From NCBI GenBank assembly GCA_963739455.1, contig CAVUAK010000001.1, positions 1,536,001 through 1,600,000 of the forward strand: a stretch of 64,000 nt of DNA, given 5' to 3'. Positions 6,353-50,059 of the stretch are shown piece after piece. A program made the position numbers and the translations under genes. Source of the DNA: an uncultured Gemmatimonadales bacterium (GTDB lineage: Bacteria; Gemmatimonadota; Gemmatimonadetes; Gemmatimonadales; GWC2-71-9). Below the pieces are notes generated by a model that saw nothing but the letters and a program-made list of their open reading frames with translations, did not search any database and had not been told where the DNA came from. Every line of letters begins with the position of its first letter. The first letter of the stretch is position 1.

Positions 6353-9300
6353 GTGTCGACACTTCGAATTTGCCGCTTTAACGCGGCTGCGATTCTCATT
6401 ATGGGTGCCCTCGCCGGCGCCTGCTCCGATACGCCTAGCAGCCCAAGCGGTGACGGCCTCAACCCACCACCAGCGGCTTCGCAGTTCGACATGCTCAATC
6501 TGAGTCCCATGGCCGCCTCCTCGGAGGCAGGAGCTCCGATGGCGCTCCTGATTGCGCCGACAACCTTTTGGGGTGCGGGCATTGGTTCCACGGTGACATG
6601 GAGCGTTCAGTCTGTTGATGGCGCATCCTCCGCCACGCTGCGCGAGGCACAGGACACCGGCACGGTCATGGTTGCGACAACTCCCGGGATGTACCTGCTC
6701 AAGGCGTCGAGCGAAGGTCTCGAGGGCTACAGCTTGATTGAGGTCGTCGAACGCGCGGCGGGCGCCGCGCTCCCAGCGGCGGTTGACAACGATGTGGCGG
6801 CGGCGAAGCTGACTACCCTGCGCATTCAGCCGCGTACTGCTAGCGTTGCTCCGGGCGGCACGATTCAGTTCATGACCAGCTACTCATGGAGTGAACCGTC
6901 CGGCCTGCCGACACTGACCTGGTCGGCATCGGGAGGCACCGCAACAGGAACCTGGGTGCCGGCGGGTGACTGGTATGCTCCTGGTGGGCGCTATGTGGCG
7001 CCATCGACCCCAGGGACCTACCGGGTCGTCGTCAGCTATGGATACGTTGCCGATACGGCGTTGGTCACCGTGGGTGCGGCCTCCGTGAGCTCCGCGGCCT
7101 CGGGGAGCAGCGCGCGACGCTTGATCTCCATTTCGACGACGCCGAGTGCGGTAACGCTGGCGCCTAACGCCACTGTGCTCATTCGTGCGGACTACAAATG
7201 GAATGTCTCGGCCGGGCCCCCGACCCTGAGCTGGACCGCAAGTGGCGGCACAGTGTCGCGCACTTGGGTCCCTGCGAATGGCTGGTATGCGCCGGCTGGC
7301 TTTTACACTGCCCCGGCGCAGCCCGGTAGCTACAGAGTGATCGCGAGCTACTCCAACATCGCGGACACCACCATCGTCACCGTCACTGGCACGCCAGTGC
7401 CAGCCCCGCCGCCGCCGGCTCCTAAGCCGACGCTCACTTTCTCGGCGGTGGTGCTGACCCCGGCGTCCGTGTCGCTGGCGCGTGGCGCGACGCAGCAGTT
7501 CAGTGCCATCGGGCGGATGAGCGACGGGAGCACCTCGAGCGTGGCGGTGACCTGGTCGGCTACAGGGGGGACGGTGTCGGGGACGGGCCTCTATACGGCG
7601 GGGGCGACCGCGGGGACGTACCGGGTGATCGCGGTGCGGCAGGGCGATACGAAGGCGGATACGTCGGCGGTGACGATCACGGTGGCGGCGACGCCGACGT
7701 TGAGCGCGGTGGAAGTGACGCCGGGGAGCGCGTCGGTGGGGACGGGCGGCACACAGCAGTTCAGCGCGCTCGGGCGGATGAGCGACAACAGCACCAGCGC
7801 GGTGACGGTGACGTGGAGTGCGACGGGGGGCACGATCAGCACCGGGGGCCTGTATACCGCGGGCAGCACCGCCGGCGCGTACCGGGTCATCGCGGTGCAG
7901 CAGGGGGGCACGCGGGCGGACACGGCCGCGGTGACGGTGACCGCGCCGGTGACGGGCGGGTTCACGGTGACGATGCCGGAGGGGCCGCGCGTGGTGTTGA
8001 ACACGGCGTATACGGCGCCGACGGGGAGCTCGATCGCTGTGGCGGCGGGGGGCAACCTGCAGGCAGCGTTGAACGGGGCGAGCTGTGGCGATGAGGTGGT
8101 ACTGGCGGCGGGGGCGACGTTCACGGGCAACTTCGTGTTGCCGGCGAAGGGGTGTGGCGCGAGCAACCGGATCCACGTGCGCTCGGCGGGGACGTTGCCG
8201 GCGGAGGGGCAGCGGATGACGCCGGCGCAGGCGGGGAGCCTGGCGAAGCTGGTGTCAGCGAACAGCACCCCGGCGCTCCAGACCGCCTCGGCGGCGAGTG
8301 GGTATCGCGTGATGGGGGTGGAGATCACGGTGAGCGCGGGGGCGGGGACGAACTACGGCATCGTCGCGCTGGGGAACGGCGAGACGACGTTGAGTCAGGT
8401 ACCGACGGATCTGATCCTGGATCGGGTCTACATCCACGGGAACCCGTCGCAGAACGTGCGGCGCGGCGTCGCGCTGAACAGCCGGTCCACCGCAATCATC
8501 GATAGTTATATCAGCGAGATCCATGAGTCGGGGGCCGACAACCAGGCGATCTGCGGCTGGACGGGCCCGGGCCCCTTCAAGATCGAGAACAACTATCTGG
8601 CCGCCGCGGGCCAGAACATCATGTTCGGCGGGTCGGACCCGTCGATCGCGAACCTCTCGCCCTCGGACATCGAGATCCGGCACAATCACCTGTTCAAGCC
8701 GTTGGCGTGGCAGTCGCAGGGCTGGATCGTCAAGAATATCGTGGAGTTCAAGCACGCACAGCGGGTGGTGGTCGAGGGGAACGTGCTGGAGAACCACTGG
8801 GTGGGCGCGCAGGCCGGCTTCGCGGTGGTGATGTTCTCGGTCAACCAGGGCCAGACGGCACCGTGGACGGTGGTGCAGGATATCCTGTGGCGGAACAACG
8901 TGCTGAAGAACATCCCCGCGGGCTTCAACCTCGCGGAGACGAACAGTCACGACAACCAGATCGGACAGTCGGCGCGGCGCATCGCGCTGGTGAACAACCT
9001 GCTCGAGCGTGTGGGCGAGAGCGCGGTCGGGGGCGTGGGCCGCATGGTGCAGGTGCTGGGCGACATCAACGGGGTGGCGGATGTGACGGTCGAGCACAAC
9101 ACGATGGTGTTCTCGACGGCGGGGGGCGCCACGCGCAACTCGTTCCTCATGTTCAGCGGGCCCAAGGCGCCGCGCCTGACCTTCCGCAATAACATCGCGG
9201 AGATGGGCAGCTACGGCATCATCCGCGTGGATGACGTGGGCGGCAGCGGGACGGCGGGCCTCAACAACTCCGCGACGCCGTGGCAAGTCCTGGGCAACGT

Positions 9301-9508: not shown

Positions 9509-9567
9509 ACTCCCCGAACGGCGAACGCATGATCCCGGACCCCGCCACCCACATGGGTGCCGGGGTC
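7484..9567 (+). repeat. Direct repeat copy 1 (2084 bp), apparently identical to 12012-14095; 7915-9508 also matches 14627-16220
   Basis: Constant offsets of 4528 and 6712 bp. Translations of overlapping ORFs in several frames are identical between copies. Confidence 0.93.
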
Positions 9568-9568
9568 C
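9537..9568 (+). terminator. Stem-loop after lipoprotein 1 (no U-tract in this copy)
   Basis: GGACCCCG-c-CACCC-acat-GGGTG-c-CGGGGTCC. Confidence 0.5.
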
Positions 9569-9724
9569 GTAGGCTTCTGGACAGGTGGCCAATTGAACTT
9601 CCATGAGGAACCAAGCGGCAGTGTCACTTCACTGTAGCAAAGAAATGACACTAAAAGCATCCGTGAATTTGGGGAGTTGGCAGCCAGTCAAGATGCTACC
9701 GTGCAATAACTTTCGCAAAAATTG

Positions 9725-10007: not shown

Positions 10008-13000
10008 TTGATGGTGACCACTAGCTTCGAGTCACGGCTGATTGCCCGGATCCAACGGGCGTGCGTTGCTGCGATCCTCGCGGCCTCAGTGTCATGCACC
10101 CTCCAGGAGCCGGTCGTAACTGACCCCCTTGATCCGCCGGACGCCACGGCTGATACACTCGCCATTTCGCCCCAGAATGCCTCGGTTGCCACAGGAGACT
10201 CCATCACCTTTGCAGCTCCTGGTGAGACTGTGGTTGGCACGCCCGTTTCTGGGCCAGTCGAATGGACAGTCTCAGGTGGCACCGGTGCCTCGGTTACGAG
10301 CGCCGGAACCTTCCGCGCTTCAGCGGGTGGCGACTATGTGGTGCAGGCGGCCCGCGCCGGCCACTCGGGTCGGTCACGAGTGCACGTTTCCGGCTCCTCA
10401 TCGGCGCTCTCCTCAGTCAGGATCGCGCCCAACGTTCTCACTCTGCAACCAGGCGCCGCCTTCACTCTTGCGGTGTCGGGCTTGCTGCCGGACGGGACGG
10501 TGGTCCCGGTCAGCGGCAATTGGACGGCGACGGGAGGAACGATCACTTCGGGTGGGCGCTATACCGCAGGGAGTGCTCTGGGCACGTTCCGCGTCGTTGT
10601 TACGCAGCAGGGCGGCACGCTCGCTGATACCTCTGCCATTACGATTTCGAGTGCTGCGCCCACACTCACCGCGATCGAGCTTTCCCCACCCACCGTCAGT
10701 CTGTTACCGAGTGCATCACAGCAATTCAGCGCGATTGCACGGATGAGTGATGGCAGCACCGGAACCGCATCAATAGCCTGGAGTGCAACGGGAGGTACCA
10801 TCAGCTCCTCGGGGCTCTATCAGGCTGGGGCGACGACCGGCACGTTCCGCGTTGTTGCAGCGCAGCAGGGTGGCACCAAGGCCGACACCGCCGTCGTCAC
10901 CATTACTGCCCCGCCGCCCACACTTCAGGCCATCGAGGTGAGTCCGGGCAGCGTGAGCCTCGCGCCGAGCGCGTCGCAACAGTTCTCTGCTGTCGGACGC
11001 ATGAGCAACGGAACGTCATCGAGCGTGACGGTCTCGTGGTCGGCCACGGGTGGCACAATCACTTCGACGGGCGCGTACGTCGCCGGTTCAATCGCCGGAA
11101 CGTTCCGAGTGATCGCGGCACAGCAAGGTGGCGCGAAGGCCGATACTGCAAACGTGACCATTACCGCCGTGACGCCTCCCCCAACGGTCACACTGCAGGC
11201 CGTCGTGGTCTCGCCGGTGAACGCGAGCCTGGAGACGGGCGACACGCAGCAATTCTCGGCGGCTGGCCGGATGAGTGACGGCAGTACTTCGAGTCTTGCG
11301 GTGGCTTGGTCTGCTACGGGCGGCAGCATCTCGAGCGCCGGGCTGTACACGGCGGGCAGCACGGCGGGCAACTATTCGGTAGTTGCGAGACAGCAAGGCG
11401 GCACGTTGGCAGATACGTCGCTGGTGACGGTTACGGTGCCGGCGCCTACGCTGCAGGCGATTGTCATCTCACCGGCATCTATCGCACTGACGACCGGCGC
11501 TTCACAGCAGTTTTCGGCGACGGGGCGGATGAGCGATGGAAGCACGGGGAGCGTGTCGGTCACCTATTCGGCCACCGGCGGCTCCGTGAATGCAGCCGGT
11601 CTCTTTACCGCTGGTACGGTTGCGGGCTCATACCGGGTTATTGCCGTGCAGCAGGGCGGGTCGAAGGCCGATACGGCGGCGGTGACGATTGCTGTACCGG
11701 CGCCGACCCTGAGCGCGATCGAGATCTCACCGGGTTCCGTGAGTCTGGTCACGGGTGGATCCCAGCAGTTCTCTGCCGTCGGCCGGATGAGCGATGGGAG
11801 TACGGCGAGCATCCCGATCTCGTGGAACGCCACCGGTGGCACCGTCAGCTCGAGCGGGGCCTATGTGGCTGGTAATACTACCGGGACGTTCCGCGTCATT
11901 GCCGGGCAGCAGGGCGGCACGAGGGCGGATACATCTGCCGTTACCATCACCGCTCCTGCGCCGACATTCACCGCAGTTGAGGTGACTCCAGCAACTGCTA
12001 CCGTCGCGGCAGGCGCGACGCAGCAGTTCAGTGCCATCGGGCGGATGAGCGACGGGAGCACCTCGAGCGTGGCGGTGACCTGGTCGGCTACAGGGGGGAC
12101 GGTGTCGGGGACGGGCCTCTATACGGCGGGGGCGACCGCGGGGACGTACCGGGTGATCGCGGTGCGGCAGGGCGATACGAAGGCGGATACGTCGGCGGTG
12201 ACGATCACGGTGGCGGCGACGCCGACGTTGAGCGCGGTGGAAGTGACGCCGGGGAGCGCGTCGGTGGGGACGGGCGGCACACAGCAGTTCAGCGCGCTCG
12301 GGCGGATGAGCGACAACAGCACCAGCGCGGTGACGGTGACGTGGAGTGCGACGGGGGGCACGATCAGCACCGGGGGCCTGTATACCGCGGGCAGCACCGC
12401 CGGCGCGTACCGGGTCATCGCGGTGCAGCAGGGGGGCACGCGGGCGGACACGGCCGCGGTGACGGTGACCGCGCCGGTGACGGGCGGGTTCACGGTGACG
12501 ATGCCGGAGGGGCCGCGCGTGGTGTTGAACACGGCGTATACGGCGCCGACGGGGAGCTCGATCGCTGTGGCGGCGGGGGGCAACCTGCAGGCAGCGTTGA
12601 ACGGGGCGAGCTGTGGCGATGAGGTGGTACTGGCGGCGGGGGCGACGTTCACGGGCAACTTCGTGTTGCCGGCGAAGGGGTGTGGCGCGAGCAACCGGAT
12701 CCACGTGCGCTCGGCGGGGACGTTGCCGGCGGAGGGGCAGCGGATGACGCCGGCGCAGGCGGGGAGCCTGGCGAAGCTGGTGTCAGCGAACAGCACCCCG
12801 GCGCTCCAGACCGCCTCGGCGGCGAGTGGGTATCGCGTGATGGGGGTGGAGATCACGGTGAGCGCGGGGGCGGGGACGAACTACGGCATCGTCGCGCTGG
12901 GGAACGGCGAGACGACGTTGAGTCAGGTACCGACGGATCTGATCCTGGATCGGGTCTACATCCACGGGAACCCGTCGCAGAACGTGCGGCGCGGCGTCGC

Positions 13001-14036
13001 GCTGAACAGCCGGTCCACCGCAATCATCGATAGTTATATCAGCGAGATCCATGAGTCGGGGGCCGACAACCAGGCGATCTGCGGCTGGACGGGCCCGGGC
13101 CCCTTCAAGATCGAGAACAACTATCTGGCCGCCGCGGGCCAGAACATCATGTTCGGCGGGTCGGACCCGTCGATCGCGAACCTCTCGCCCTCGGACATCG
13201 AGATCCGGCACAATCACCTGTTCAAGCCGTTGGCGTGGCAGTCGCAGGGCTGGATCGTCAAGAATATCGTGGAGTTCAAGCACGCACAGCGGGTGGTGGT
13301 CGAGGGGAACGTGCTGGAGAACCACTGGGTGGGCGCGCAGGCCGGCTTCGCGGTGGTGATGTTCTCGGTCAACCAGGGCCAGACGGCACCGTGGACGGTG
13401 GTGCAGGATATCCTGTGGCGGAACAACGTGCTGAAGAACATCCCCGCGGGCTTCAACCTCGCGGAGACGAACAGTCACGACAACCAGATCGGACAGTCGG
13501 CGCGGCGCATCGCGCTGGTGAACAACCTGCTCGAGCGTGTGGGCGAGAGCGCGGTCGGGGGCGTGGGCCGCATGGTGCAGGTGCTGGGCGACATCAACGG
13601 GGTGGCGGATGTGACGGTCGAGCACAACACGATGGTGTTCTCGACGGCGGGGGGCGCCACGCGCAACTCGTTCCTCATGTTCAGCGGGCCCAAGGCGCCG
13701 CGCCTGACCTTCCGCAATAACATCGCGGAGATGGGCAGCTACGGCATCATCCGCGTGGATGACGTGGGCGGCAGCGGGACGGCGGGCCTCAACAACTCCG
13801 CGACGCCGTGGCAAGTCCTGGGCAACGTGTTCGCCGGGAGCACGAGTGGGAACGCGTACCCCAGCGGGAATCCCGTGGCGGCGAGCACCAGTGTGGTCGG
13901 CTTCAGCAACGCCAGTGGCAGCGACTACAGCCTGAGCGCCAGTTCCAGCTATCGCGGGCAGGCCACCGATGGCACCGACCCCGGCTACAATCGCGCCGCC
14001 CTCCTCACCGCCACCCAAGGGGTCGTCCTCCCCTGA
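10008..14036 (+). CDS. Surface lipoprotein 2: 9 Ig-like repeats plus the same beta-helix-like tip
   Basis: Lipobox-like AASVS-C; nine repeats of about 85 aa counted; C-terminal part identical to lipoprotein 1. Confidence 0.82.
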   Translation: MMVTTSFESRLIARIQRACVAAILAASVSCTLQEPVVTDPLDPPDATADTLAISPQNASVATGDSITFAAPGETVVGTPVSGPVEWTVSGGTGASVTSAGTFRASAGGDYVVQAARAGHSGRSRVHVSGSSSALSSVRIAPNVLTLQPGAAFTLAVSGLLPDGTVVPVSGNWTATGGTITSGGRYTAGSALGTFRVVVTQQGGTLADTSAITISSAAPTLTAIELSPPTVSLLPSASQQFSAIARMSDGSTGTASIAWSATGGTISSSGLYQAGATTGTFRVVAAQQGGTKADTAVVTITAPPPTLQAIEVSPGSVSLAPSASQQFSAVGRMSNGTSSSVTVSWSATGGTITSTGAYVAGSIAGTFRVIAAQQGGAKADTANVTITAVTPPPTVTLQAVVVSPVNASLETGDTQQFSAAGRMSDGSTSSLAVAWSATGGSISSAGLYTAGSTAGNYSVVARQQGGTLADTSLVTVTVPAPTLQAIVISPASIALTTGASQQFSATGRMSDGSTGSVSVTYSATGGSVNAAGLFTAGTVAGSYRVIAVQQGGSKADTAAVTIAVPAPTLSAIEISPGSVSLVTGGSQQFSAVGRMSDGSTASIPISWNATGGTVSSSGAYVAGNTTGTFRVIAGQQGGTRADTSAVTITAPAPTFTAVEVTPATATVAAGATQQFSAIGRMSDGSTSSVAVTWSATGGTVSGTGLYTAGATAGTYRVIAVRQGDTKADTSAVTITVAATPTLSAVEVTPGSASVGTGGTQQFSALGRMSDNSTSAVTVTWSATGGTISTGGLYTAGSTAGAYRVIAVQQGGTRADTAAVTVTAPVTGGFTVTMPEGPRVVLNTAYTAPTGSSIAVAAGGNLQAALNGASCGDEVVLAAGATFTGNFVLPAKGCGASNRIHVRSAGTLPAEGQRMTPAQAGSLAKLVSANSTPALQTASAASGYRVMGVEITVSAGAGTNYGIVALGNGETTLSQVPTDLILDRVYIHGNPSQNVRRGVALNSRSTAIIDSYISEIHESGADNQAICGWTGPGPFKIENNYLAAAGQNIMFGGSDPSIANLSPSDIEIRHNHLFKPLAWQSQGWIVKNIVEFKHAQRVVVEGNVLENHWVGAQAGFAVVMFSVNQGQTAPWTVVQDILWRNNVLKNIPAGFNLAETNSHDNQIGQSARRIALVNNLLERVGESAVGGVGRMVQVLGDINGVADVTVEHNTMVFSTAGGATRNSFLMFSGPKAPRLTFRNNIAEMGSYGIIRVDDVGGSGTAGLNNSATPWQVLGNVFAGSTSGNAYPSGNPVAASTSVVGFSNASGSDYSLSASSSYRGQATDGTDPGYNRAALLTATQGVVLP

Positions 14037-14095
14037 ACTCCCCGAACGGCGAACGCATGATCCCGGACCCCGCCACCCACATGGGTGCCGGGGTC
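12012..14095 (+). repeat. Direct repeat copy 2
   Basis: Matches 7484-9567, including 59 bp of 3' untranslated sequence. Confidence 0.93.
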
Positions 14096-16245: not shown

Positions 16246-17583
16246 CTAGGTCGCCCCGCGTGCGAGATGCTGCCGTGCCGTCGCCGATTGCTGCTGGACC
16301 ACATCAGCGAGTACCAGCAGCAGCGCTAGATGAATGTAGAGATATGTGAGGAAAGCGAACGTCCCCCAGATCCCGGCAACAAGATATCCGAAGAGGCTGA
16401 ATTCCAGGAGCTGTAACCGCCGCCATTCCGGACTTCTCGATACGTTGCTCGCCTTCCTGCGCACACTGCGCGCTCTCAGAATGATCACCAGGACAATCGA
16501 GCCGAAGAGGATCAGGCCCGGGAAGCCCGTCTCGGCGAGGACCTCGAGGTACGTGTCATGCACATCGCGCGCGCCCAAGTGGGGACTGTACTCCTTGTTG
16601 GCCTTCTCGTAACGCCCGAGCCCGACTCCTAGCACCGGGTGATCACCGATGACCTGGAAGCTTGTCTGCCAAATTTCCCAGCGCTGGGTCGCCGAGCCTT
16701 CCGGGTCAACCTCTGCCAGGTTCTCGGTGTTCGTCGCATTCTTAAGTCCGGCCAGACGTTGCCACACACCGCTCGGCGCTACGAAGATTGCGACGAAAGC
16801 GACGGCGGCGGTAGCGAAAAGCAGCCGTCCCCGGTTCCGCTTCTCGCCTGAGATAACGAGCAAGACGAAGAGCGTGAGCCCGATAAAGACTGCGCGGGAC
16901 TGCGTCATGAGGATGACAATCGGAAATACCACCACCGCGGCGAGCGCGCCAAGCCGCACAAGCTTCGGGACGTCGCGGCGCACGTAGCTTGCCGCGACGG
17001 CGAGTGGGAGCAATGTCATTGCTGCCATATCATTAGCGTTGCCGAATGCGCCGCGCCAGGCGGGGCGGCCAAAGTCGGCATTGTGATAGATGGCGTAATT
17101 GAAGATCGTGCCTCTGGCAGGGTAGAGTGCAAAGAGCACAATCAGCATCAGCAGGAAGAGGTTTAGGACTCGTGGATCACGGAGGGCGTTGTAAGCCACG
17201 AGAAAGATGATGCCGACCTTGGCGAGATCCTCCACCGGGGCCATCGTTCCCGGCATTGTGCTGATCGAGTCGCCGATTGCCGCCCAGAAAATGAAGAGTG
17301 CAAGCAACCAGAAGGCGAGCGGCCACTTGAGGGCCTTTCCGCTGGTTACCAGTCCAACGACGGCGACGGCCATCGCGATGTACGCGATCGGGGCGATGAA
17401 CGTCGTGATGGCTATGAAGTACGCAAAGAAGCCGATGCGGTCCAGCGACCAGCGGACCTGCTTGAGCTGTAAAAAGCTCCGAAGTGATTGGTGCCGGGCA
17501 CTTGGCTCAACTCCTGTGACCGGGGGCGGTAACGGGGCGACCGCTGTACTGGGATAGCCGGAATAGCCCCTTTCGCGCTTCAT
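16246..17583 (-). CDS. O-antigen ligase / Wzy polymerase family membrane protein
   Basis: Multiple TM helices; FGNANDMA, TQSRAVF, RWEIW, GVGLGRY, HDTYLEVLAETG. Confidence 0.85.
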   Translation of the reverse strand: MKRERGYSGYPSTAVAPLPPPVTGVEPSARHQSLRSFLQLKQVRWSLDRIGFFAYFIAITTFIAPIAYIAMAVAVVGLVTSGKALKWPLAFWLLALFIFWAAIGDSISTMPGTMAPVEDLAKVGIIFLVAYNALRDPRVLNLFLLMLIVLFALYPARGTIFNYAIYHNADFGRPAWRGAFGNANDMAAMTLLPLAVAASYVRRDVPKLVRLGALAAVVVFPIVILMTQSRAVFIGLTLFVLLVISGEKRNRGRLLFATAAVAFVAIFVAPSGVWQRLAGLKNATNTENLAEVDPEGSATQRWEIWQTSFQVIGDHPVLGVGLGRYEKANKEYSPHLGARDVHDTYLEVLAETGFPGLILFGSIVLVIILRARSVRRKASNVSRSPEWRRLQLLEFSLFGYLVAGIWGTFAFLTYLYIHLALLLVLADVVQQQSATARQHLARGAT

Positions 17584-18425: not shown

Positions 18426-18436
18426 GCCAAGCCCTT

Positions 18437-20997: not shown

Positions 20998-20998
20998 C

Positions 20999-25113: not shown

Positions 25114-25115
25114 CG

Positions 25116-26255: not shown

Positions 26256-26323
26256 GGTGTTGCGCACGGTGCCCTGAGAGTGGCGAAGCTGTCGTAGGGG
26301 AGCAGGAAGTGTGCCCTCCATTA

Positions 26324-28642: not shown

Positions 28643-28658
28643 CGGCACAAGGCTTGCG
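28643..28658 (+). promoter_or_regulatory. Candidate sigma54 -24/-12 promoter
   Basis: CGGCAC-aaggc-TTGCG, close to the TGGCAC-N5-TTGC consensus. Confidence 0.55.
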
Positions 28659-37138: not shown

Positions 37139-37233
37139 TTTGGCCGTGCCTGCAAGTCCTGTTCCCGGTGTTTGTCGAATGGCATGCTGTTGAGCCCATC
37201 GTCCCGCCGTGCTGCCCGTGGGAGTGCGCACTA

Positions 37234-41593: not shown

Positions 41594-42604
41594 GTGGCGC
41601 TGATTACCGGGCGTGCGGCACGCCGGCACCGCATGGCGCTTCTCGCGCTCCTCCTTCTCGGTGCTTGCCGTGGTCGTGGGGAAACCACTGCCGCCCCCCC
41701 GAACAACGTGCTGTCCTTGGCGCCGTTCCGCGCGGTCATCTTTACGCGGGATTCGCTGCAGTACCACTCGGACGGCTTCAAGGAGGCTGGGGCCGACGGT
41801 GCTGAGCGCCCGCGGTACAGAGTGACCGGGGGCGGGGTTACGGGGACTGGCCTGTATTCGGCACCGGATTGGGAGGGACATTTTCTGGTTATCGCCACGC
41901 TGGCCGGGACCGGGCAAGCCGATACCAGCCACATCATGGTTGTTAAGCGAGGAAAGCACAGCTATCAGAGTGCCTTCCCATCTACGGAAGAGGTGCTCTC
42001 TGACGGTGGTCGCTGGGCAAACGGAGGCCTGATCGGCCTCGAGTGGTCGAACGTGGCGACTAGGCCCGGTCGAGTGTTTGGCCTTCAAACCGGTCGGAGC
42101 TACAGTGATGCGACGGCGTTGCTGACAGGGGAATGGTTGCCCAACCAGATGGTGGCCGCCACTGTCTACGTCGTGTCAGCTCAGTGGGAGGAATGCTACC
42201 CAGAAGTAGAACTCCGTCTGCGAAGTACACTGTTTCCGCGCTGGAATGCGGGTTACGAGGTCAGTTTCGAGGTATCGAGTGATCATGAGGCGTATCTGAT
42301 TGTCGTGCGCTGGAACGGGCCATTTGGCAACTTTACCTACTTGCTGAAGCGGAAGGGCCCCGAATTCGGGGTGCGAGACGGGGACGTGGTGAGCGCCAAG
42401 GCACAGGGTGACACAATCTTTGCTTACAAGAACGGTGTAGAATTGGCCCGGGTAACGGATGCTGCATACGCCGGCGGCAACCCAGGGATCGGATTCAATC
42501 TCGAGAACGCGCGACTGGCGTGTAGGGGCACGAACAGTCGGTACGGCTTTTCGAGCTTTCTGGCGACCGACGAAGAGCTTGAGCCACGCGGAGTCGCTCA
42601 CTGA
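41594..42604 (+). CDS. Surface lipoprotein 4: 1 Ig-like repeat plus beta-sandwich-like tip B
   Basis: Basic n-region, LLLLGA-C lipobox, one degenerate Ig repeat (VTGGGVTGTGLYSAP), C-terminal domain homologous to that of 47183-50059. Start uncertain. Confidence 0.72.
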   Translation: MALITGRAARRHRMALLALLLLGACRGRGETTAAPPNNVLSLAPFRAVIFTRDSLQYHSDGFKEAGADGAERPRYRVTGGGVTGTGLYSAPDWEGHFLVIATLAGTGQADTSHIMVVKRGKHSYQSAFPSTEEVLSDGGRWANGGLIGLEWSNVATRPGRVFGLQTGRSYSDATALLTGEWLPNQMVAATVYVVSAQWEECYPEVELRLRSTLFPRWNAGYEVSFEVSSDHEAYLIVVRWNGPFGNFTYLLKRKGPEFGVRDGDVVSAKAQGDTIFAYKNGVELARVTDAAYAGGNPGIGFNLENARLACRGTNSRYGFSSFLATDEELEPRGVAH

Positions 42605-42626: not shown

Positions 42627-42673
42627 CGTAGCGTGAGTTTGTACCGTCGCCTTTCCTGGGAACCCATGGAGCC

Positions 42674-43468
42674 ATGCTAGGCATCGTCCCTCAACTTCGC
42701 GAAGTCTTCGATCGTCGCGACCTGCTGTACATCCTCACTTGGCGTGAGATTGCGCTGAAATACAAGCAATCAGTTATGGGCCTCCTCTGGGCAGTCCTGA
42801 TGCCGATCGTGGTCATTGGCGCCGGAGTGATTGTCCGGTACGCGATAGCGAGCACCTCCGGCACGCCATTGGCTAAGGCTGACATTGCTGCGGTTGCCGT
42901 AAAGGCTGCTCCATGGGCCTTTTTCGTGGCGGCGCTTCGGTTCGGGACGAACAGCCTCATCGCGAGTGCCAACCTGCTCACGAAGATCTACCTGCCGCGG
43001 CTCATCTTCCCCATGGCAGCCGTGCTGTCACAGCTCTTTGACTTCGTTGTGGCCTCAGGGGCCATACTCATTCTCCTCGCACTACTCGGCGTTGGGGTCA
43101 GTTTCCAACTGTTGTGGCTCCCCGTGCTGCTCGGGCTGCTTTTCCTCCTCGCAGTGAGCTGCGCGATCCTCTTGTCTGCCGGTAGCCTCTTCTTCCGCGA
43201 CGTGAAGTACATCGTGGAAATCATCCTCACCTTTGCCATTTTCTTCACGCCGGTGCTTTACGAGGCTTCCATGATGGGCAAGTGGCAGCCCTTGATCCTG
43301 CTCAACCCAGTGGCGCCCATTCTGGAGGGCCTTACCACGACCGTCATCAAGCATGGCGCGCCATCGCTGCCATGGCTCCTGTACAGCGGCGTCTGGGCGT
43401 GCGGCCTGCTGCTGATCGCATTGACCATGTTTCGCCGGCTTGAGCCCTACTTCGCCGAGAGCGTCTGA
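42674..43468 (+). CDS. wzm: Polysaccharide ABC transporter permease
   Basis: REIALKYKQSVMGLLW, KIYLPR, FRDVKY, TPVLY, LNP. Confidence 0.9.
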   Translation: MLGIVPQLREVFDRRDLLYILTWREIALKYKQSVMGLLWAVLMPIVVIGAGVIVRYAIASTSGTPLAKADIAAVAVKAAPWAFFVAALRFGTNSLIASANLLTKIYLPRLIFPMAAVLSQLFDFVVASGAILILLALLGVGVSFQLLWLPVLLGLLFLLAVSCAILLSAGSLFFRDVKYIVEIILTFAIFFTPVLYEASMMGKWQPLILLNPVAPILEGLTTTVIKHGAPSLPWLLYSGVWACGLLLIALTMFRRLEPYFAESV

Positions 43469-43470
43469 TC

Positions 43471-44706
43471 GTGACCAACACGGTGCTGGAGGTGAATGCG
43501 GTCTCTAAGCGTTTTCGGCGTGGCCAGCTGCATGACTCGCTGCGTGACCTGCTTCCGTCGCTGGGACGCAGGCTGATACGCGCTGGAGCGGCGCCAGAGC
43601 ACAGCGTGCTCGACTTCTGGGCACTACAGGATGTGTCATTCACTGTTGAAGAGGGAGAGGCTTTTGCGATCGTCGGCGGTAATGGGGCGGGCAAGAGCAC
43701 CATGCTCAAGCTATTGTCGCGTATCATGCGGCCGACCAGCGGGGCTGTGAGCGTTGAGGGACGCCTTTCGGCGCTGATTGAGGTGAGCGCCGGCTTTCAT
43801 CCTGACCTGACCGGAAGAGAGAACATCTACCTCAACGGCGCGATCCTCGGGATGAGCCGTTCCGAGATTGCGCGTCGGTTCGACGAGATTGTCGCGTTCT
43901 CAGGCCTGGAGCAGTTCCTGGACACCCAGGTCAAGCGCTATTCCTCCGGCATGTACGCCCGGCTCGGGTTCTCGGTCGCCGCACATGTTGATGCCGATGT
44001 CCTGCTGATCGACGAGGTGCTTAGCGTGGGCGATTACTTGTTCCAGAGGAAGTGCGTTGAGCGGATGAACGAAGTCATTCGCGGTGGCACGACGGTCGTA
44101 TTCGTGTCTCACAATCTCAAGGCGGTGACCGAGCTCTGCCACCGGAGCCTCTTGCTTGAACGGGGCCGGGTTGGAATGATCGGCCCGACCACGGACGTTG
44201 TTCGCACTTACCTCTCCCGCGGCGGTGTACGGCATGACGTCAAGCCGGGCCAGCCAGTCAGCATTGTCAGTGTGACCGTGGAGGGACCGGACGGGACTGC
44301 GATCGGGTTGCCCTCCGGGGGGCGTGCTCGGGTGACGGTCGACGCTCACGCTCTGACGGACATCGACGACGTAACGCTGTTGATCCAGGTCGCTGACGAG
44401 CAGCAGTATGCGCTGTTCGACACGTGCAGTCAGCGGCTCGGGGCGGGACCCCTATCAATACGGCGTGGTGAAACCGCGAAGTGTGTCTTCGATCTCGATC
44501 TCGAGCTGGCCGAGGGCACCTACTACATCAACGCATATATCCACCAGTATGTCACAGGCACCACGTATGACCGGTGGGACACGGCAGCGACGTTCTTTGT
44601 GCGCGGAACACCGTCCATGCGGGGCGTCGTCAATCTGCACCCAAGGCTCACGAGCTGTGCGGTGTGCGCCGCGAGTGCAATTCAGGCCCCGGTGTCGGCT
44701 GGGTGA
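43471..44706 (+). CDS. wzt: Polysaccharide ABC transporter ATP-binding protein with C-terminal Wzt domain
   Basis: GGNGAGKST, YSSGMYARL, IDEVLSVGD, VSH, plus a C-terminal extension. Confidence 0.92.
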   Translation: MTNTVLEVNAVSKRFRRGQLHDSLRDLLPSLGRRLIRAGAAPEHSVLDFWALQDVSFTVEEGEAFAIVGGNGAGKSTMLKLLSRIMRPTSGAVSVEGRLSALIEVSAGFHPDLTGRENIYLNGAILGMSRSEIARRFDEIVAFSGLEQFLDTQVKRYSSGMYARLGFSVAAHVDADVLLIDEVLSVGDYLFQRKCVERMNEVIRGGTTVVFVSHNLKAVTELCHRSLLLERGRVGMIGPTTDVVRTYLSRGGVRHDVKPGQPVSIVSVTVEGPDGTAIGLPSGGRARVTVDAHALTDIDDVTLLIQVADEQQYALFDTCSQRLGAGPLSIRRGETAKCVFDLDLELAEGTYYINAYIHQYVTGTTYDRWDTAATFFVRGTPSMRGVVNLHPRLTSCAVCAASAIQAPVSAG

Positions 44707-45959
44707 AACCGTTCCAGCCAGATCTCCCTCCAGAAGATCCACTCGTTCTCGGGGTTGAAGTCCCGGAACTCTCCTGTCGCGGTCACACCTTCGAGGATGA
44801 TGGATGGCCTGCTTAGGTGCACGAGCTGTCCCGTCGCCTCGACCATCGTCAGCTCCACACGGTCGCGGACACGATAGATCCCGCCGCAATACCGAAGCAT
44901 GTCAGGGTCAAATCGCAGCCCTCGATTTCGCGACGCGTCGTTCAAGGTGGCTTCAATTTCTGCCTTGGTACGCACGCGAACGAACTCCCCCGGGCGGAGA
45001 TTGAGGGAGAGCTCCGGCGTTGAGTGCCCGGCCGCCGGGGTGTAGAACGGGGACTCCACGCCACTGCGGAGGTTCTGAATTCGATTGAACGCGGCGAGTG
45101 ACAATCCCGCGAGGAACGCTCGCGGCGGAACATTGCCGTTGAGCAGGTCCCGGAAGTAGCGCCCATAGATGCCGCTGCTCATCGGAGTGGTGCCGGCGGT
45201 AAGTTCGGTGGCCTGGCATCGCATCCTATTGCCACGGCGAGTGTGCATCACAAGCCGATTGCGATCGTACTGCTCCGTGGCGTAATGAACCGCTGCAGCC
45301 GCACTAGTGCGCTTCGCAGCGGCAATGTTCGGCCTCGTGGTTCGCACAAGCCAGGATTCGTTCCATCGAATGTGACAGTTTGCCTGGCAGCCTTGATGAG
45401 CGGATCCATCACATCGGATGTCCACTAGCTGCACCGTTGAGCGCACGCGGCGCAAGCCAGTCTTGCCGATCCAGTCATGCAGTTTGTCGATGCGACGTGC
45501 GACCTGGGCTGTGCGCCCGCACCAGCCAGCCATTTCAGGCATGAACGGCAGTCCGCCGAGCGCACCGTCCTGGTCGAGCGTGGAGGCAATCTCGGCGAGG
45601 GTCCTGACCTGCACCCAGTCACCGGCGCGAAGGCCGCGCGATGACGCGGCTGAACGAAGGACCGAGAAGATCGGCGCCGGAAGCCACTCGCGGGGCCGGT
45701 CGGTGTGATAGGGAAGGCCTCGTGCTTCCATCGCATCTCGACGCAGGGCAATCACGCCACCCAGCACCACAAGCGCGGCGCTGCTCGCCAGCCAGAGCAG
45801 TGCCAGGAAGAGCAACACGAATAGGAGCGGCCCGGCGTGGGAAGCGCCATGCACCTCGGGCGGCGCCAGTGCAACGGCCACGCATGCGGCGCTCGCCAGG
45901 CCGCAAATGGCACCTGCAGCGACGACGGTCTTCAGGTAGCTAGTGCGCAATCCGGACAC
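44682..45959 (-). CDS. Conserved hypothetical membrane-anchored protein with an internal duplication
   Basis: Two N-terminal TM helices. Two homologous units (LRAGDWVQVRTLAEIASTLD..LPFMPEM and LRPGEFVRVRTKAEIEATLN..LRFDPDM). Confidence 0.7.
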   Translation of the reverse strand: MSGLRTSYLKTVVAAGAICGLASAACVAVALAPPEVHGASHAGPLLFVLLFLALLWLASSAALVVLGGVIALRRDAMEARGLPYHTDRPREWLPAPIFSVLRSAASSRGLRAGDWVQVRTLAEIASTLDQDGALGGLPFMPEMAGWCGRTAQVARRIDKLHDWIGKTGLRRVRSTVQLVDIRCDGSAHQGCQANCHIRWNESWLVRTTRPNIAAAKRTSAAAAVHYATEQYDRNRLVMHTRRGNRMRCQATELTAGTTPMSSGIYGRYFRDLLNGNVPPRAFLAGLSLAAFNRIQNLRSGVESPFYTPAAGHSTPELSLNLRPGEFVRVRTKAEIEATLNDASRNRGLRFDPDMLRYCGGIYRVRDRVELTMVEATGQLVHLSRPSIILEGVTATGEFRDFNPENEWIFWREIWLERFHPADTGA

Positions 45960-45998
45960 TCGACCAATTCATCCTGCGATAGGTGAGATTGCGCAAAA

Positions 45999-46014
45999 TG
46001 GCATGAAAGTCGCA
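45999..46014 (+). promoter_or_regulatory. Candidate sigma54 -24/-12 promoter
   Basis: TGGCAT-gaaag-TCGCA upstream of the GT2 gene. Confidence 0.45.
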
Positions 46015-46132
46015 CAGCAAGGTGGCCCTAAGATAGCTTCCTAAACCTTGATAGGGCTTCAGGTTGGGTCTGCGCTGTGACGGTGTGGCAACAGACCAGC
46101 GGACGCGACCTCCCGTTGGCGAGTGACAACAA

Positions 46133-47131
46133 ATGAGACCATCCATGACCGAATCTAGAATGCCGTTGGTAAGCGTCGTCATTCCGGTCTACAATGGGGC
46201 CGAATTTCTCGCCAACGCGATCGACAGTGTTCTGAAGCAAACCTACTCCAATTTCGATCTCACGATCGGCAACAACTGGAGCACAGACCGGACCTTGGAG
46301 ATCGCGCAGGAGTATGCCGCCCGCGATTCACGAATTCGCGTTGTCACGTATCCAAAATTCGTGTCTGTGGTCGATAGCCACAACACGGCATTTACCCTGA
46401 TCTCACCGGAAGCAGAGTATTGCAAGATCGTTGGGGCAGACGACTGGATATTCCCTGATTGCCTGCGGTGCATGGTAGAAGTCGCTGAGGCGTATCCCAG
46501 TGTCGGAATGGTCTCATCGTATGTCTTGCACGGGACAAATGTAGGCCGCGTTGGTATGCCATACCCGAGACAGTTTGTGCGGGGTCGGGAGATATGCCGC
46601 ATGCGCTTCCTGGAGGAGGTAAAGCCGTTCGGAGGGCCCTCGGCGTCACTCATTCGGGCAACCATTCTCAAGACGCAGCGGCCGTTCTACAACCCACTGA
46701 ACTACCATGGTGACATCGAGGCGTACCTGGAATTGCTGAAGGATCACGATTTTGGCTTTGTTTTTCAGGTCCTTTCTTACAACAGGAAAGGCGAGAAGTC
46801 ACGTACCACCGCCTACCTCGATCGAGTCGAATCATCGTACGCTGCCGAAGTAGATGAACTGACGAAATACGGCCCAGTCTACCTCACGCCCGAGGAACGG
46901 GAGCCGCGCCTGCAGGCGGCTTGGCGGCGGTACTATCGATTTCTGGGCGAAAATGCCCTCAAGTTCCGGAACAAGGAGTTCTGGGACTATCACTTCAAGC
47001 ACATCAAGGCGATGGGCTACTCCCTCAGTCGCGGCAGGATTGCGGCCAGTGCCCTCCAACGGGTTCTGGAGCTCGCCTTGAATCCTCTCAATACGGCCCG
47101 CGCGATCCTGCGAAGGCTGGCAGCAACCTGA
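46133..47131 (+). CDS. Glycosyltransferase family 2
   Basis: VSVVIPVYNG, NWSTD, GADD. Confidence 0.9.
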   Translation: MRPSMTESRMPLVSVVIPVYNGAEFLANAIDSVLKQTYSNFDLTIGNNWSTDRTLEIAQEYAARDSRIRVVTYPKFVSVVDSHNTAFTLISPEAEYCKIVGADDWIFPDCLRCMVEVAEAYPSVGMVSSYVLHGTNVGRVGMPYPRQFVRGREICRMRFLEEVKPFGGPSASLIRATILKTQRPFYNPLNYHGDIEAYLELLKDHDFGFVFQVLSYNRKGEKSRTTAYLDRVESSYAAEVDELTKYGPVYLTPEEREPRLQAAWRRYYRFLGENALKFRNKEFWDYHFKHIKAMGYSLSRGRIAASALQRVLELALNPLNTARAILRRLAAT

Positions 47132-47182
47132 GCCGTCTTTCGTCAGCGTTCAGGTGCCAGCCCTTGCTGCCTTGCGAGCCAC

Positions 47183-50059
47183 TCAGGGGGTATCTGTGGC
47201 CACAAAGCTTGTAAATCCATAATCCCCATTGGTGCCGGAGCAACCGGCCGGCGCGTTCTCCAGGTTGAACCCCATGCCAGGGCTTCCGCCTGTGTATGTA
47301 TTGTCGACCGCCGTTGCCATCTGGACGCCGTTCTTGTAAGCCGTTATCTGGTTGCCCACGACCTTTGCGCTGATCACATCGCCCTCCTTCACGCCATACT
47401 GGGCGCCATTCTGGTTGAACAGGTAGGTGTAGTTGCCCAGCGGCCCGTTCCATCGAACGATGATTAAGTAGGCGTCGGAGGACGACGACACCTTGAAGCT
47501 GATCTCGTACCCGTTGTTCAAGTGTGCCGCCACGGTGCTCCGCAGGCGCAATTCAACTTCCTGGTAGCAGGCGTCCTTAGGGTTCACCGCGTGAACGGTT
47601 GCCGTGACCGACTGGTTGGTGCCCCATTGGCCATTGAGCAGCGCTGTTGCGTCCGTGTAGCTGGCGCTAGCTTGGCGGCCGATCGCGAGTCCCGGCGTGG
47701 TGGAGACATTGCTCCAGTCGAGGCCAACGCTCCCGCCGTTGATCCAGCGCCCGCCCTCAGAAATCGGGTTCTCGTTGAGCGCGAAGCTCGTGCTGTAGTC
47801 ATGTCCCACCGGGCTGGCGGCCGCGACTGTCACCAACGAGGTGTCCGCCTTCGCGCCACCTTGCTGCAGGGCGATCACCTGGTAGGCCGTGCCAGCCGTC
47901 GCGCCAGCCGTATAGAGGCCTCCACCCGAGATCGTGCCGCCCGTCGCACTCCAGGTGACCGTGACTGCCTGGCTGCTGTTATCAGTCATCCTGCCGATGG
48001 CGGTGAATTGCTGCGTCGCGCCCGCGACCACCGTGGCGGTCGCTGGGGTCACCACGACGGCGGACAGCGTCGGCGCAGGCGCCGAAATCGTGATGGACGC
48101 TGTATCCGCCTTGGAGCCGCCTTGTTGCAGCGCGATCACCTGATAGGAGGTGCCAGCCGTTGCTCCAGCCGTGTAGAGCCCTCCACTCGAGATCGTGCCA
48201 CCCGTCGCACTCCAAATGACCGTGACCGGCTGGGTGCTATTGTCACTCATCTTGCCGACCGCAGCGAACTGCTGTGTCGCGCCCGCGGCCACTGTGGCGG
48301 TCGCAGGGGTTACCACGACCGCGGATAGTGTCGGAGCAGGCGCCGAAATCGTGATGGACGCTGTATCGGCCTTGGTGCCACCCGCCTGGGTCGCAATGAC
48401 CCGGAAGGATCCGCCAGTGCCGCCAGCGGTGTAGAGGCCGTTGCTGCTGATCGTGCCGCCCGTTGCGACCCAGCCAGCGCCGACGGCGGCGCTGCTCCCA
48501 TCACTCATGCGGCCGACCACGGAAAATTGCTGAGTCGAACCCGTAAGCAGGCTAGCCGAACCGGGGGCGATCTCGACCGCGGTGAGGGTGGGTGCAGTTG
48601 CAGCGATCGTCACCGCTGCCGTGTCAGCCAGCGTGCCTCCCTGCTGGACTGCGATCACTCGGAATGACCCTGCGCTAGCGCCCGCGGTGTAGAGTCCTGC
48701 AGCGCCTATCGAGCCACCTGTCGCGGTGTAGTTGACTGGCACGCTCACCGAGCTGCCATCCGTCATCTGGCCGGTAACGGTGAACTGCTGTGTGTTACTT
48801 GCCGAAAGTGTCACCGACGCTGGAGTCAGGATCACCTTCTGCACGGTTGGTGGAGGCGGCGCGATGGTGATGGTCGAGGTATCCGCCAGTGCACTGCTCT
48901 GGTGAGTGGCGATCACACGGTATGTGCCCGCGGCGCTGCCGGCGGTATAAGCCCCGTTGCTGCTCACCGTCCCGCCCGATGCGGACCAGGTCACGGCGAC
49001 GGTCGACACACTCCCATCACTCATCCGCCCCGTAGCCGAGAACTGCTGCGTGCCTCCCGCTGCGAGGCTGGAACTGCCGGGTGCAACGACGATGGCTTGC
49101 AGCGTGACGGACGGCGGTGTGCTCGCAACGGTAACCGCTGCGGTGTCAGCCTTGGTTCCACCCTGCTGCGTTGCGATAACTCGGAATGCGCCGGCCATGG
49201 CGCCGGCGGTGAAGAGACCAGCCGGACTGATGCCTCCTCCGGTGGCAGACCAGGTGACGGAGACACCCGCAGTGCTTCCATCACTCATGTGACCCACCGC
49301 AGCAAACTGCTGCACTGTACTTGGGGCGAGCGAGACCGTACCGGGTGAAATTTCGACTGTCTCTAGCGTCGGCGTGGCCGCGGTAATTGTGACGGATGCG
49401 GTGTCGGCCAGGGTCGCGCCGCTCAGCGTCGCAATCACACGATACGTTCCGGTCGCTGTCCCCGCGGTGTAGCTGCCTCCACTGCTCACGGTGCCACCCG
49501 TCGCACTCCATGTGGCAGTGATCGCCACAGTGGTGCTGTCGGCCTTCACGCCCACCGCAGTGAACGTGAAAGCGGCGCCCGGCTTGAGCGACACCGTGTT
49601 CGGTGACAGTCGAAGTCCTACGGCGGCCCCACTGCTTCTCGGAACATGCACTCGACCCCGCCCAGCGCGACTGGCGCGGCTCGCTTGCACGACGAAGTCA
49701 CCAGGCTCAGCGGCAGTGAACACGCCATTGCCGTCGATGGTACCGCCGATGCCAGCAACGAGCGTCCACTCGACAGGGCCATCGACTGGCTTGCCAAGAA
49801 CGGTCGTATCGGGCACTCGGAACGCAACTGAATCGCCTACGGCAGCGGCAAGCTCCGTTGGCGAAAGCAACAGGGAATCCTGGACTGCGGGAGGGCTTGT
49901 GGGGTCGAGAGGCTCGAGACTCGCTGGCTGTCGCATGTCGCACGCCGATAGCAGCAGCGGGAACAGGAAACCGGTTGCGAGCGCAGCGTGCGTGACCTTC
50001 AATGCCTTCAAGGGAACCCCACAATGTTTGTTTGAACGAGACCACCATGCTTGCGCCAC
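47183..50059 (-). CDS. Surface lipoprotein 5: 8 Ig-like repeats plus tip B
   Basis: LLLSA-C lipobox; eight repeats counted; C-terminal domain of about 205 aa shared with lipoprotein 4. Start uncertain. Confidence 0.82.
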   Translation of the reverse strand: MAQAWWSRSNKHCGVPLKALKVTHAALATGFLFPLLLSACDMRQPASLEPLDPTSPPAVQDSLLLSPTELAAAVGDSVAFRVPDTTVLGKPVDGPVEWTLVAGIGGTIDGNGVFTAAEPGDFVVQASRASRAGRGRVHVPRSSGAAVGLRLSPNTVSLKPGAAFTFTAVGVKADSTTVAITATWSATGGTVSSGGSYTAGTATGTYRVIATLSGATLADTASVTITAATPTLETVEISPGTVSLAPSTVQQFAAVGHMSDGSTAGVSVTWSATGGGISPAGLFTAGAMAGAFRVIATQQGGTKADTAAVTVASTPPSVTLQAIVVAPGSSSLAAGGTQQFSATGRMSDGSVSTVAVTWSASGGTVSSNGAYTAGSAAGTYRVIATHQSSALADTSTITIAPPPPTVQKVILTPASVTLSASNTQQFTVTGQMTDGSSVSVPVNYTATGGSIGAAGLYTAGASAGSFRVIAVQQGGTLADTAAVTIAATAPTLTAVEIAPGSASLLTGSTQQFSVVGRMSDGSSAAVGAGWVATGGTISSNGLYTAGGTGGSFRVIATQAGGTKADTASITISAPAPTLSAVVVTPATATVAAGATQQFAAVGKMSDNSTQPVTVIWSATGGTISSGGLYTAGATAGTSYQVIALQQGGSKADTASITISAPAPTLSAVVVTPATATVVAGATQQFTAIGRMTDNSSQAVTVTWSATGGTISGGGLYTAGATAGTAYQVIALQQGGAKADTSLVTVAAASPVGHDYSTSFALNENPISEGGRWINGGSVGLDWSNVSTTPGLAIGRQASASYTDATALLNGQWGTNQSVTATVHAVNPKDACYQEVELRLRSTVAAHLNNGYEISFKVSSSSDAYLIIVRWNGPLGNYTYLFNQNGAQYGVKEGDVISAKVVGNQITAYKNGVQMATAVDNTYTGGSPGMGFNLENAPAGCSGTNGDYGFTSFVATDTP

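Follow-up and report, generated by a model that had tools for sequence, protein, structure and literature searches.

Genes for Ig-stalked predicted lipoproteins with exchangeable, homogenised heads at the edge of an exopolysaccharide island in a Gemmatimonadales genome

The window analysed here, a stretch of 64,000 nucleotides (nt) from the assembly of an uncultured Gemmatimonadales bacterium (GCA_963739455.1, contig CAVUAK010000001.1, positions 1,536,001 to 1,600,000), carries five genes, A1, A2, A3, B1 and B2, for predicted lipoproteins in which a stalk of immunoglobulin (Ig)-like repeats ends in one of two heads, tip A or tip B, within a locus for exopolysaccharide (EPS) synthesis. The genome of the window is designated G000, related genomes bear other G-numbers, fetched loci L-numbers, and contigs the letter C. 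The open reading frame (ORF) list of the window confirms the five stalked genes where a first-pass annotation had placed them:

6353 to 9508, + strand: A1 (slot 1), predicted lipoprotein with 4-5 Big_2-type repeats and tip A (7943-9505)
10008 to 14036, + strand: A2 (slot 2), predicted lipoprotein with 9 repeats and tip A (12471-14033)
14301 to 16220, + strand: A3, predicted lipoprotein with 1 repeat and tip A (14655-16217)
41594 to 42604, + strand: B1, predicted lipoprotein with 1 degenerate repeat and tip B (41957-42571), not homogenised
47183 to 50059, - strand: B2, predicted lipoprotein with 8 repeats and tip B (47186-47824), Asp at +2

Pfam Big_2 (PF02368) matched A1, A2 and B2 with 34.6, 95.5 and 55.2 bits, respectively, against a cut-off of 22.8; A3 and B1 gave no Pfam Big_2 match, and their repeats were detected only by a local profile built on the window's own repeats (~85 amino acids, aa, each), from which all repeat counts are taken. 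This profile identifies 4 repeats in A1 plus a probable degenerate first one, 9 in A2, 1 in A3, 1 in B1 and 8 in B2, so that ORFs, Big_2 matches and profile agree with the Ig-like repeats of about 85 aa previously described in all five genes, as well as with the earlier counts of 9 and 1 under tip A and of 1 and 8 under tip B; only the count of about 5 for A1 needs the qualification just given. All five N-termini display positive charge and a hydrophobic stretch followed by a Cys (LAGA-C, ASVS-C, ALIA-C, LLGA-C and LLSA-C), B1 being read from a GTG at 41594 in a longest frame that opens at 41423, and the signal Cys is retained in congener orthologues of the stalked genes. The lipobox that had been noted in the five genes holds as a Cys after a hydrophobic stretch (5/5), whereas by inspection the strict lipobox is matched by LIAC and LSAC only (2/5). 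On these sequence features, the five genes appear to encode lipid-anchored proteins.

The three copies of tip A are letter-identical in DNA, and the identity extends beyond the head in tracts with the following limits:

7484 to 9567, + strand: tract copy 1, comprising the last ~1.8 repeats, tip A and 59 bp downstream; GC at four-fold degenerate sites (four-fold GC) 0.97, G-biased
12012 to 14095, + strand: tract copy 2, 100% identical to copy 1
14627 to 16220, + strand: tract copy 3, starting 32 nt inside the single repeat and ending exactly at the stop codon

A1 and A2 share 2,084 bp, including the 59 bp past the stop codon, and the identity with A3 covers 1,594 bp; the other stalk repeats align at ~63-73% nt identity. 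The tips of B1 and B2 are 58% identical in aa and 62% in nt, which marks the B-tip pair as old.

In congeners, the array occupies the same position and its stalk slots can be recognised; the heads there are unrelated to tip A and 99-100% identical within a genome. In G003, genes of 3, 9, 5 and 1 repeats all end in a head termed C (99.7-100% nt), and there is one additional, ordinary tip-A gene. The G006 chromosome has 9-, 1- and 5-repeat genes ending in head C' (33% aa identity to C; 99.1-100% nt) and a frameshifted 96% copy of C' in slot 1; small contigs of the same assembly carry 4-, 9- and 5-repeat genes ending in head D (99.8-100%), plus a 79% copy. The N-terminus of A1 groups with its G008 orthologue with full tree support (100/100), and this orthologue ends in a C-like head; likewise, the best matches of the A2 N-terminus are the 9-repeat genes of G003 and G006, both with other heads. 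No significant similarity was found between heads A and C or between D and C'. Stalks are thus orthologous across species under unrelated heads, and these heads are identical or nearly so within each genome, which makes concerted head replacement very likely. The heads are exchangeable modules homogenised within a genome; this is the most unusual feature of the array, and one that the first-pass annotation missed.

Two contig sets of G006 share a flank at 98.6% over 5,965 bp and a slot-2 stalk at 94.9% over 2,653 bp under unrelated heads. These two versions are probably co-assembled strains with different EPS types, and head replacement would therefore be able to occur within a species. The G006 contigs C2 and C3 (L026, L027, L066) overlap each other at 98.3% and hold an EPS island alternative to that of the chromosome. 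Stalk length is constant per slot, with 9 repeats in 4/4 complete slot-2 genes and 5 in 3/3 slot-3 genes, and since slot lengths stay constant while heads change, selection on reach is suggested. Short and long versions of one head, first noticed in the window, recur in relatives. The stalk itself is present in 115/201 family genomes, and loci were fetched from those with the strongest stalk matches. In other genera, head identity within a genome ranges from ~60% to 99%. Of 73 tip-A loci taken from the genome collection, 23 are multi-copy, most of them 66-79% identical, a few 82-90% and one 99.5%.

The limits of the tracts are those predicted by continuing conversion bounded by homology: left ends vary within the last repeats, from -23 to +463 nt relative to the tip start, and in most pairs the right end coincides with the stop codon, the copies differing in TAG, TGA or TAA. 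Congener copies hold 2-3 differences, mostly at third positions and near the 3' end. In mosaic pairs, the longest identical run was 649 nt in G007 and 563 nt in G029, against maxima of 185 and 78 nt in 2,000 permutations; 6/6 pairs tested exceeded every permutation, in a test that ignores conserved regions. Paralogues closer within a genome than orthologues between genomes, together with mosaic tracts, correspond to concerted evolution. Tracts that stop at the stop codon could point to retro-homing of a cDNA, an option that was not retained: no reverse transcriptase (RVT_1, PF00078) was found in 5/5 genomes of the genus (60-99% complete), and tracts elsewhere (G029, L095, L143) are internal or 5'-sided. 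The lack of PF00078 in these five genomes, along with tracts of 1.2-2.1 kb that are identical, also led us to reject a diversity-generating retroelement. With regard to shufflon or cassette exchange, left junctions are spread over ~490 nt, and no recombinase was found among the window proteins scanned, the genome not having been searched for one. An exact look-up for independent copies returned A3 on the window's own contig only, and A1 and B2 were not found as given.

The composition of the heads constitutes the strongest evidence for conversion over an assembly artefact. Four-fold GC is 0.96-1.00 in 17/17 homogenised heads from 6 genomes, whereas 41 other heads, taken from 22 genomes, have a median of 0.83, and one of them reaches 0.97; for this count four out-of-frame heads were dropped beforehand, and neither group includes the G008 head, which has a GC of 0.98 and no assembled paralogue, or three heads whose identity to their paralogues is 90-95%. 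The contrast repeats across four unrelated head sequences in one genus, where the enrichment is mainly in sense-strand G (0.64-0.82 vs 0.33-0.40 in same-strand neighbours). Four-fold G climbs along the last 2-3 repeats in converted genes and is flat in B2 and G161, and the tip-A genes hold the joint-highest G window among 2,242 ORFs of G000. Translational selection was discarded as the source of the high GC, as GGG, GCG and ACG are much more frequent in converted heads than in core genes (Gly GGG:GGC 42:43 vs 56:347 in G000 core genes) and the stalk in the same ORF is unaffected; core genes that reach high GC prefer GGC, a pattern that speaks against optimisation for translation. Nor was a high-GC donor retained, unconverted copies of the same families being ordinary (0.78 for the G003 tip A, 0.83 for the divergent D of G006). 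We infer that long-running biased gene conversion lies behind the composition, and our guess, drawn from known mismatch-repair hierarchies, is that strand-polar heteroduplex repair lies behind the G bias. Other G-biased four-fold windows (0.73-0.81) occur at G000:C1 28-33 kb, 759 kb, 835 kb and 2.31-2.40 Mb.

As a mechanism, a new head would arrive with a new EPS island and be installed by recombination in the similar Ig repeats; repeated RecA-type conversion between the paralogues, which are homologous only as far as the stop codon, would then keep its copies identical, and biased heteroduplex repair would drive four-fold sites to G/C. We hold these steps, taken jointly, to be highly probable.

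Tip A (520 aa) is predicted to be a right-handed beta-helix (predicted local distance difference test, pLDDT, 94.5), in agreement with the fold and length expected from the first inspection. Its top structural matches are tied or nearly tied, and include the PL31 alginate lyase 6KFN (Z 29.2, root-mean-square deviation (rmsd) 2.2, 274 aligned), AlgE A-modules (Z 29.1-28.8), RbmB (Z 27.8, rmsd 2.9, 316 aligned) and the Sf6 tailspike (Z 27.2); the parallel beta-helix with an N-terminal cap is that of PL31/PL6/RbmB-like lyases. By sequence, no full-length membership in a named polysaccharide lyase (PL) family and no Pfam family at E<=0.1 was found, and the only PDB sequence matches, 6KFN and BcAlyPL6, cover just the ~55-residue N-terminal cap. 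The tip-A family has at least 1,590 relatives, some homologues carrying precomputed PF13229, and those of named source are mostly from Gemmatimonadaceae or Acidobacteria. Across 84 homologues, D199, Q201, D242, K264, N265, E268, K270, R274, W286, Q290 and W308 are invariant. Tip A is found in 52 viral contigs and tip B in 4, and PHROGs gave no family for tips A, B, C or D. The viral contig at L246:3156-6509 encodes a fusion of a tail protein (phrog_376) with a tip-A domain; other viral tip-A relatives stand alone or follow Ig repeats (L243, L255).

For tip B, which measures 211-218 aa instead of the ~205 aa first estimated, a ConA-like beta-sandwich is predicted (pLDDT 94.1). Its structural evidence comes from a wide search with VIA-align, which matched mycobacteriophage baseplate/receptor-binding chains (Z 19.1 for 8zdo, and 17.1), the galactocerebrosidase lectin domain (Z 18.3) and the CBM66 module 4b1m (Z 17.3, rmsd 2.6, 157 aligned), the fold being the jelly-roll beta-sandwich of ConA-like lectin/CBM66-type modules. 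No Pfam match was obtained, a PDB sequence search gave a chance-level ferredoxin match only, and language-model leads, in which few features are shared, reach 0.93 for clusters of PelX_N and 3keto-disac_hyd; the family has at least 1,318 relatives. Structure prediction and structure searches, a check of the kind that the first-pass annotation had proposed, yield carbohydrate-active folds for both heads. By the same searches, the two folds are unrelated, and the single five-member family suggested earlier holds for the common stalk scaffold and not for the tips. Other heads on the same stalk show weak to moderate Pfam matches to PL14, PL20-type, PL22 and PL6, or Kelch repeats; head D has a PcRGLX-like (PL26-like) feature lead, and head C matches TolB only (E 0.17), its 'propeller-like' label resting on weak PD40 and PL22 matches. 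A sixth stalk lipoprotein, with a third head type, lies on another contig (G000:C3:374272-376194; L018:9309-11198); it has 4 repeats and a 160-aa head without a Pfam family, is of ordinary composition and apparently single-copy, and has relatives at 48-60% in at least five congeners.

Domain scans confirm that the genes sit in a glycan locus, specifically an EPS cluster. The island spans ~80 kb, from wecB (window position 1286) to an exosortase, EpsI and a PEP-CTERM gene ~18 kb past the window end; the exosortase (PF09721, G000:C1:1617371-1618126) and a TIGR02595 match at 1618425 are both above cut-off, as are TIGR02602 and TIGR02914, and TIGR03087/03088/03108-like genes are also present, which identifies a PEP-CTERM/exosortase EPS locus. 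No PEP-CTERM tail was found on the stalked proteins, the genome's two TIGR02595 matches lying outside the five genes. Island borders are mostly 70-95% identical in aa in congeners, most interior genes 35-60%; the left border is formed by an amidohydrolase, argR and an HNH gene, and the right one by the exosortase and a cluster resembling polyketide synthase/nonribosomal peptide synthetase (PKS/NRPS) genes. Judged by these identities, the island appears to behave like a serotype locus, with the A array at its left edge. Two biosynthetic modules and the border gene are located as follows:

5412 to 5996, + strand: HNH-domain gene at the left edge of the variable island, a border conserved among congeners (94-98% aa in four of them)
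16246 to 28650, - strand: EPS module A, tracked by tip A (domain scans, linkage)
42674 to 52324, no strand assigned: EPS module B, tracked by tip B, with a wzm/wzt ABC transporter, a 425-aa hypothetical protein, a family 2 glycosyltransferase (GT2), rmlC and a DRL oxidoreductase

Module A encodes an O-antigen-ligase/Wzy_C-like protein, a hypothetical protein, a nucleotide-sugar dehydrogenase, a family 4 glycosyltransferase (GT4, TIGR03087-like), an asparagine-synthase-like amidotransferase, a heparinase II/III-like protein, a second GT4, a deacetylase and a third GT4. Homologues (at least 38%) of the dehydrogenase-GT4-amidotransferase-heparinase-like genes of this module lie beside 40/73 tip-A loci, with two or more genes in 25, and beside 1/79 tip-B loci; conversely, module-B genes lie beside 7/79 tip-B loci and 1/73 tip-A loci. 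The adjacency of tip A and module A spans records of Gemmatimonadota, Acidobacteriota and Methylomirabilota. Among 200 family genomes, an orthologue of the glycosyltransferase GT4b is present in 10/13 genomes with tip A and 6/187 without, and the 425-aa gene in 3/3 genomes with tip B and 6/197 without. The 425-aa protein (window 44682-45959) has no Pfam or NCBIfam match, is shared by the three other genomes with tip B, adjoins several metagenome loci that carry tip B, and is a candidate marker of polymer B. Between 50421 and 56300 of the window, the DRL oxidoreductase and the following sugar-nucleotide genes show a run of frameshifts relative to their G202 and G108 homologues, reflecting either misassembly of this region or a module B in decay; up to 50 kb, the ORFs look intact. 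In L063, the asparagine synthase and sugar dehydrogenase genes are split.

We give a probability of about 0.6 to the whole account, in which conserved Ig stalks carry an exchangeable polysaccharide-active head that is spread by conversion and acts on the EPS of the neighbouring module. Because each head travels with a particular biosynthetic module, its substrate would be the cell's own polymer, and on this linkage we consider self EPS the probable target. Tip A would be a lyase of the RbmB/PL31 kind, trimming or releasing a uronic-acid EPS; from the predicted fold we favour this role by a little, binding without cleavage being the less probable but still substantial option. Tip B would most likely serve as an anchor of the lectin or carbohydrate-binding module (CBM) type, again judging from its model. 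With an Ig domain measuring ~4 nm, stalks of 1, ~5 and 9 repeats (roughly 4, 20 and 36 nm) would set one activity at several EPS depths, and such display is plausible. More tentatively, and with odds well short of even, the array may be a serotype-matched head-on-stalk cassette system, that is, a fixed stalk ladder at the border of a swappable EPS island, re-tipped whenever the polymer changes. If so, new lyase or lectin heads would come from the same pool as phage tail depolymerases; all through the matrix, they would groom self EPS or cross-link it and take part in strain-level kin recognition, and strand-biased conversion saturating synonymous G/C would constitute a within-gene natural experiment on biased gene conversion in bacteria.

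A number of findings weigh against this account. The exact 100% tract identity is that of the assembly sequence, and homogenisation is not universal, multi-copy loci outside the genus being mostly 60-90% identical; the G029 tract displays no GC rise (0.65 vs 0.65), and the G202 heads are GC-rich but C-biased. B2 carries Asp at +2. The window tip A has Ala220 and Gln224 where 94-95% of the 84 homologues have Glu, and may thus be an inactive or retuned variant; Gln224 is also found in 3/5 of the closest listed homologues. In sequence, tip A matches solved lyases at just 15-20% identity, and its fold is common to lyases, epimerases, hydrolases, adhesins and tailspikes. Concerning the linkage, 3/13 tip-A genomes have no GT4b match, tip-B loci are shorter (401 kb vs 1,082 kb of flank), and kin genomes are non-independent, so that the linkage statistics (Fisher) overstate the association. 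Furthermore, G003 combines module A with a single unconverted tip A, its four converted genes carrying tip C (a module private to this head was sought, with no clear result), and G007 has module-B-like genes with no tip B within the 60 kb read.

Among the alternatives, the heads might be anchors only, non-catalytic lectins that tether EPS or cross-link cells bearing the same EPS in the manner of Bap1 and RbmC, resulting in flocs and kin-selective aggregation. The best structural matches of tip B are indeed binding modules (CBM66, phage receptor-binding domains, lectins), several tip-B domains on one stalked protein would suit avidity, the window tip A lacks the two family-conserved Glu, and PEP-CTERM/exosortase loci are tied to floc formation in the accessible text of 10.64898/2025.12.21.693542; we nonetheless regard this as improbable, given that D199, Q201, D242, K264, E268, K270 and R274, all invariant in tip A, look like an enzyme site and that unrelated heads are repeatedly lyase-like. 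The evolutionary account would be the same in either case. Foraging or offence by surface enzymes against foreign polysaccharides, with the EPS island merely a recombination hotspot, would suit a stalk that is a generic scaffold in more than half of the family genomes with many heads, Kelch repeats included, and the alginate lyases among the close matches of tip A. However, tip A keeps the same dehydrogenase-GT4-amidotransferase neighbours across the records of three phyla, and no TonB-dependent transporter or catabolic operon was found among the neighbouring proteins scanned, which renders this explanation very unlikely.

Still smaller odds attach to the two remaining explanations. A long-read assembler or polisher could have stamped or duplicated the copies, in line with three tip-A copies with zero differences in an assembly that is 84% complete, in 4 contigs, and frameshifted at 50.4-56.3 kb; against such an artefact, each gene has its own N-terminus and downstream DNA and congener orthologues in the same order, congener copies retain their 2-3 differences and different stop codons, the 200-contig G008 assembly breaks where stalks would enter the head, and consensus calling would hardly yield four-fold GC values of 0.97-1.00 that change gradually along the stalk. 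As for function, the first-pass annotation had proposed glycan-active heads on the cell's own EPS, possibly as a ruler; carbohydrate-active folds and module linkage support the former part, and the latter is not supported. A ruler, in which stalk length sets EPS chain length or capsule thickness, agrees with slot lengths that are constant under changing heads, but several lengths coexist in one cell, tip-B domains also occur mid-stalk in three relatives (G202, G043 and G108), N-terminal regions differ by at least 150 aa in only 7/23 multi-copy tip-A loci, and many tip-A paralogue pairs have no stalk at all. Moreover, the known chain-length rulers (Wzz, WbdD) act at the inner membrane and have no domain in common with the stalked proteins. 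The loci L032:8436-17775 (G108:C149) and L036:12306-15395 (G202:C4) present a 17-repeat stalk (1,684-aa frame) and 2-3 tip-B domains per stalked protein.

The separate elements of this array are known, namely Lig-type conversion, self-polymer lyases in EPS loci, domain exchange in tailspikes, PEP-CTERM loci and GC-biased conversion; our literature search, which left most subscription papers outside, found no description of the array or of the combination. Phage tailspikes have a conserved proximal part and a swapped C-terminal, glycan-specific depolymerase domain; in the window, by contrast, the carrier is a chromosomal lipoprotein array, the target is likely a self polymer, and one head is found on all copies. 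The right-handed beta-helix of PL31 6KFN, AlgE epimerase A-modules and PL6 lyases resembles tip A, which is a separate family. By analogy, RbmB of Vibrio cholerae appears to be the nearest functional model for tip A, being alike in fold at 17% identity, and module A has a sugar dehydrogenase and an amidotransferase. To our knowledge, RbmB and Bap1 have no Ig stalk, lipid anchor or homogenised multi-copy array. According to the accessible parts of the reports, RbmB, a lyase of beta-helix fold, uses a Lys base and has as its substrate an amidated uronic-acid polymer made by the cell itself (PMC12993940); it trims at the cell surface while Bap1 cross-links the polymer (PMC11695861).

Leptospira LigA/LigB, in the portion of PMC7821625 available, are likewise lipoproteins with Big_2 repeats encoded in tandem, and gene conversion is inferred to maintain near-identity over a long block; that block comprises the promoter and the first 6.5 domains, and the distal parts differ (PMC7821625), which is the opposite polarity to the window, where identity is C-terminal, N-termini differ and the C-terminus is a beta-helix or lectin fold, so that these are not Lig proteins. 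In addition, unrelated heads here replace each other between species, in an EPS locus of an environmental bacterium. The window locus holds the marker genes of PEP-CTERM/exosortase EPS loci, for which no stalked array is described in the parts available of PMC1569441 and 10.64898/2025.12.21.693542 (epsSMASH). Recombining bacterial DNA is GC-enriched independently of optimal codons, according to the text available of PMC4450053; that work, as far as covered, deals with recombination in genes across clade genomes, whereas our case is an intragenomic, within-ORF tract, near-saturating (A+T 0-4% at four-fold sites) and, in the genus, G-biased on the sense strand.

These findings suggest a possible route by which members of a phylum that is abundant in soil and sediment, yet little studied, may match their surface enzymes or lectins to a rapidly changing EPS type. 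They also bring forward numerous candidate families of polysaccharide-active proteins that await characterisation; in the case of tips A and B, neighbouring biosynthetic genes indicate the likely substrate. The debated question of whether bacterial gene conversion is biased to G/C independently of codon selection becomes testable, because a single frame contains sequence of both kinds, converted and unconverted, and one head family exists in both states in different genes. The sense-strand G excess in the genus may also reveal strand polarity in heteroduplex repair.

Some minor features complete the description of the locus. One further element follows A1:

9530 to 9575, + strand: GC-rich hairpin 3' of A1, largely repeated after A2 (14037-14095), from fold energy

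It folds at -33 kcal/mol (z -2.1; 5/200 shuffles fold as well), was not called an intrinsic terminator by the terminator scan, and is possibly a terminator or mRNA stabiliser; the promoter scan found no sigma-70-like site. At the HNH gene, which immediately precedes the array, the 98.6% identity of the two G006 contig versions stops, and the IscB match of this gene spans the HNH domain only; no evidence was found that it drives exchange. The PKS/NRPS-like cluster, with a luciferase-like monooxygenase domain, adjoins the exosortase (L064:2332-12348; G000:C1 ~1,620-1,630 kb). Finally, window positions 35006-37246, within the EPS island, encode a cytochrome c and PQQ-type beta-propeller protein, with homologues in the G202 and G007 loci that contain module-B genes.

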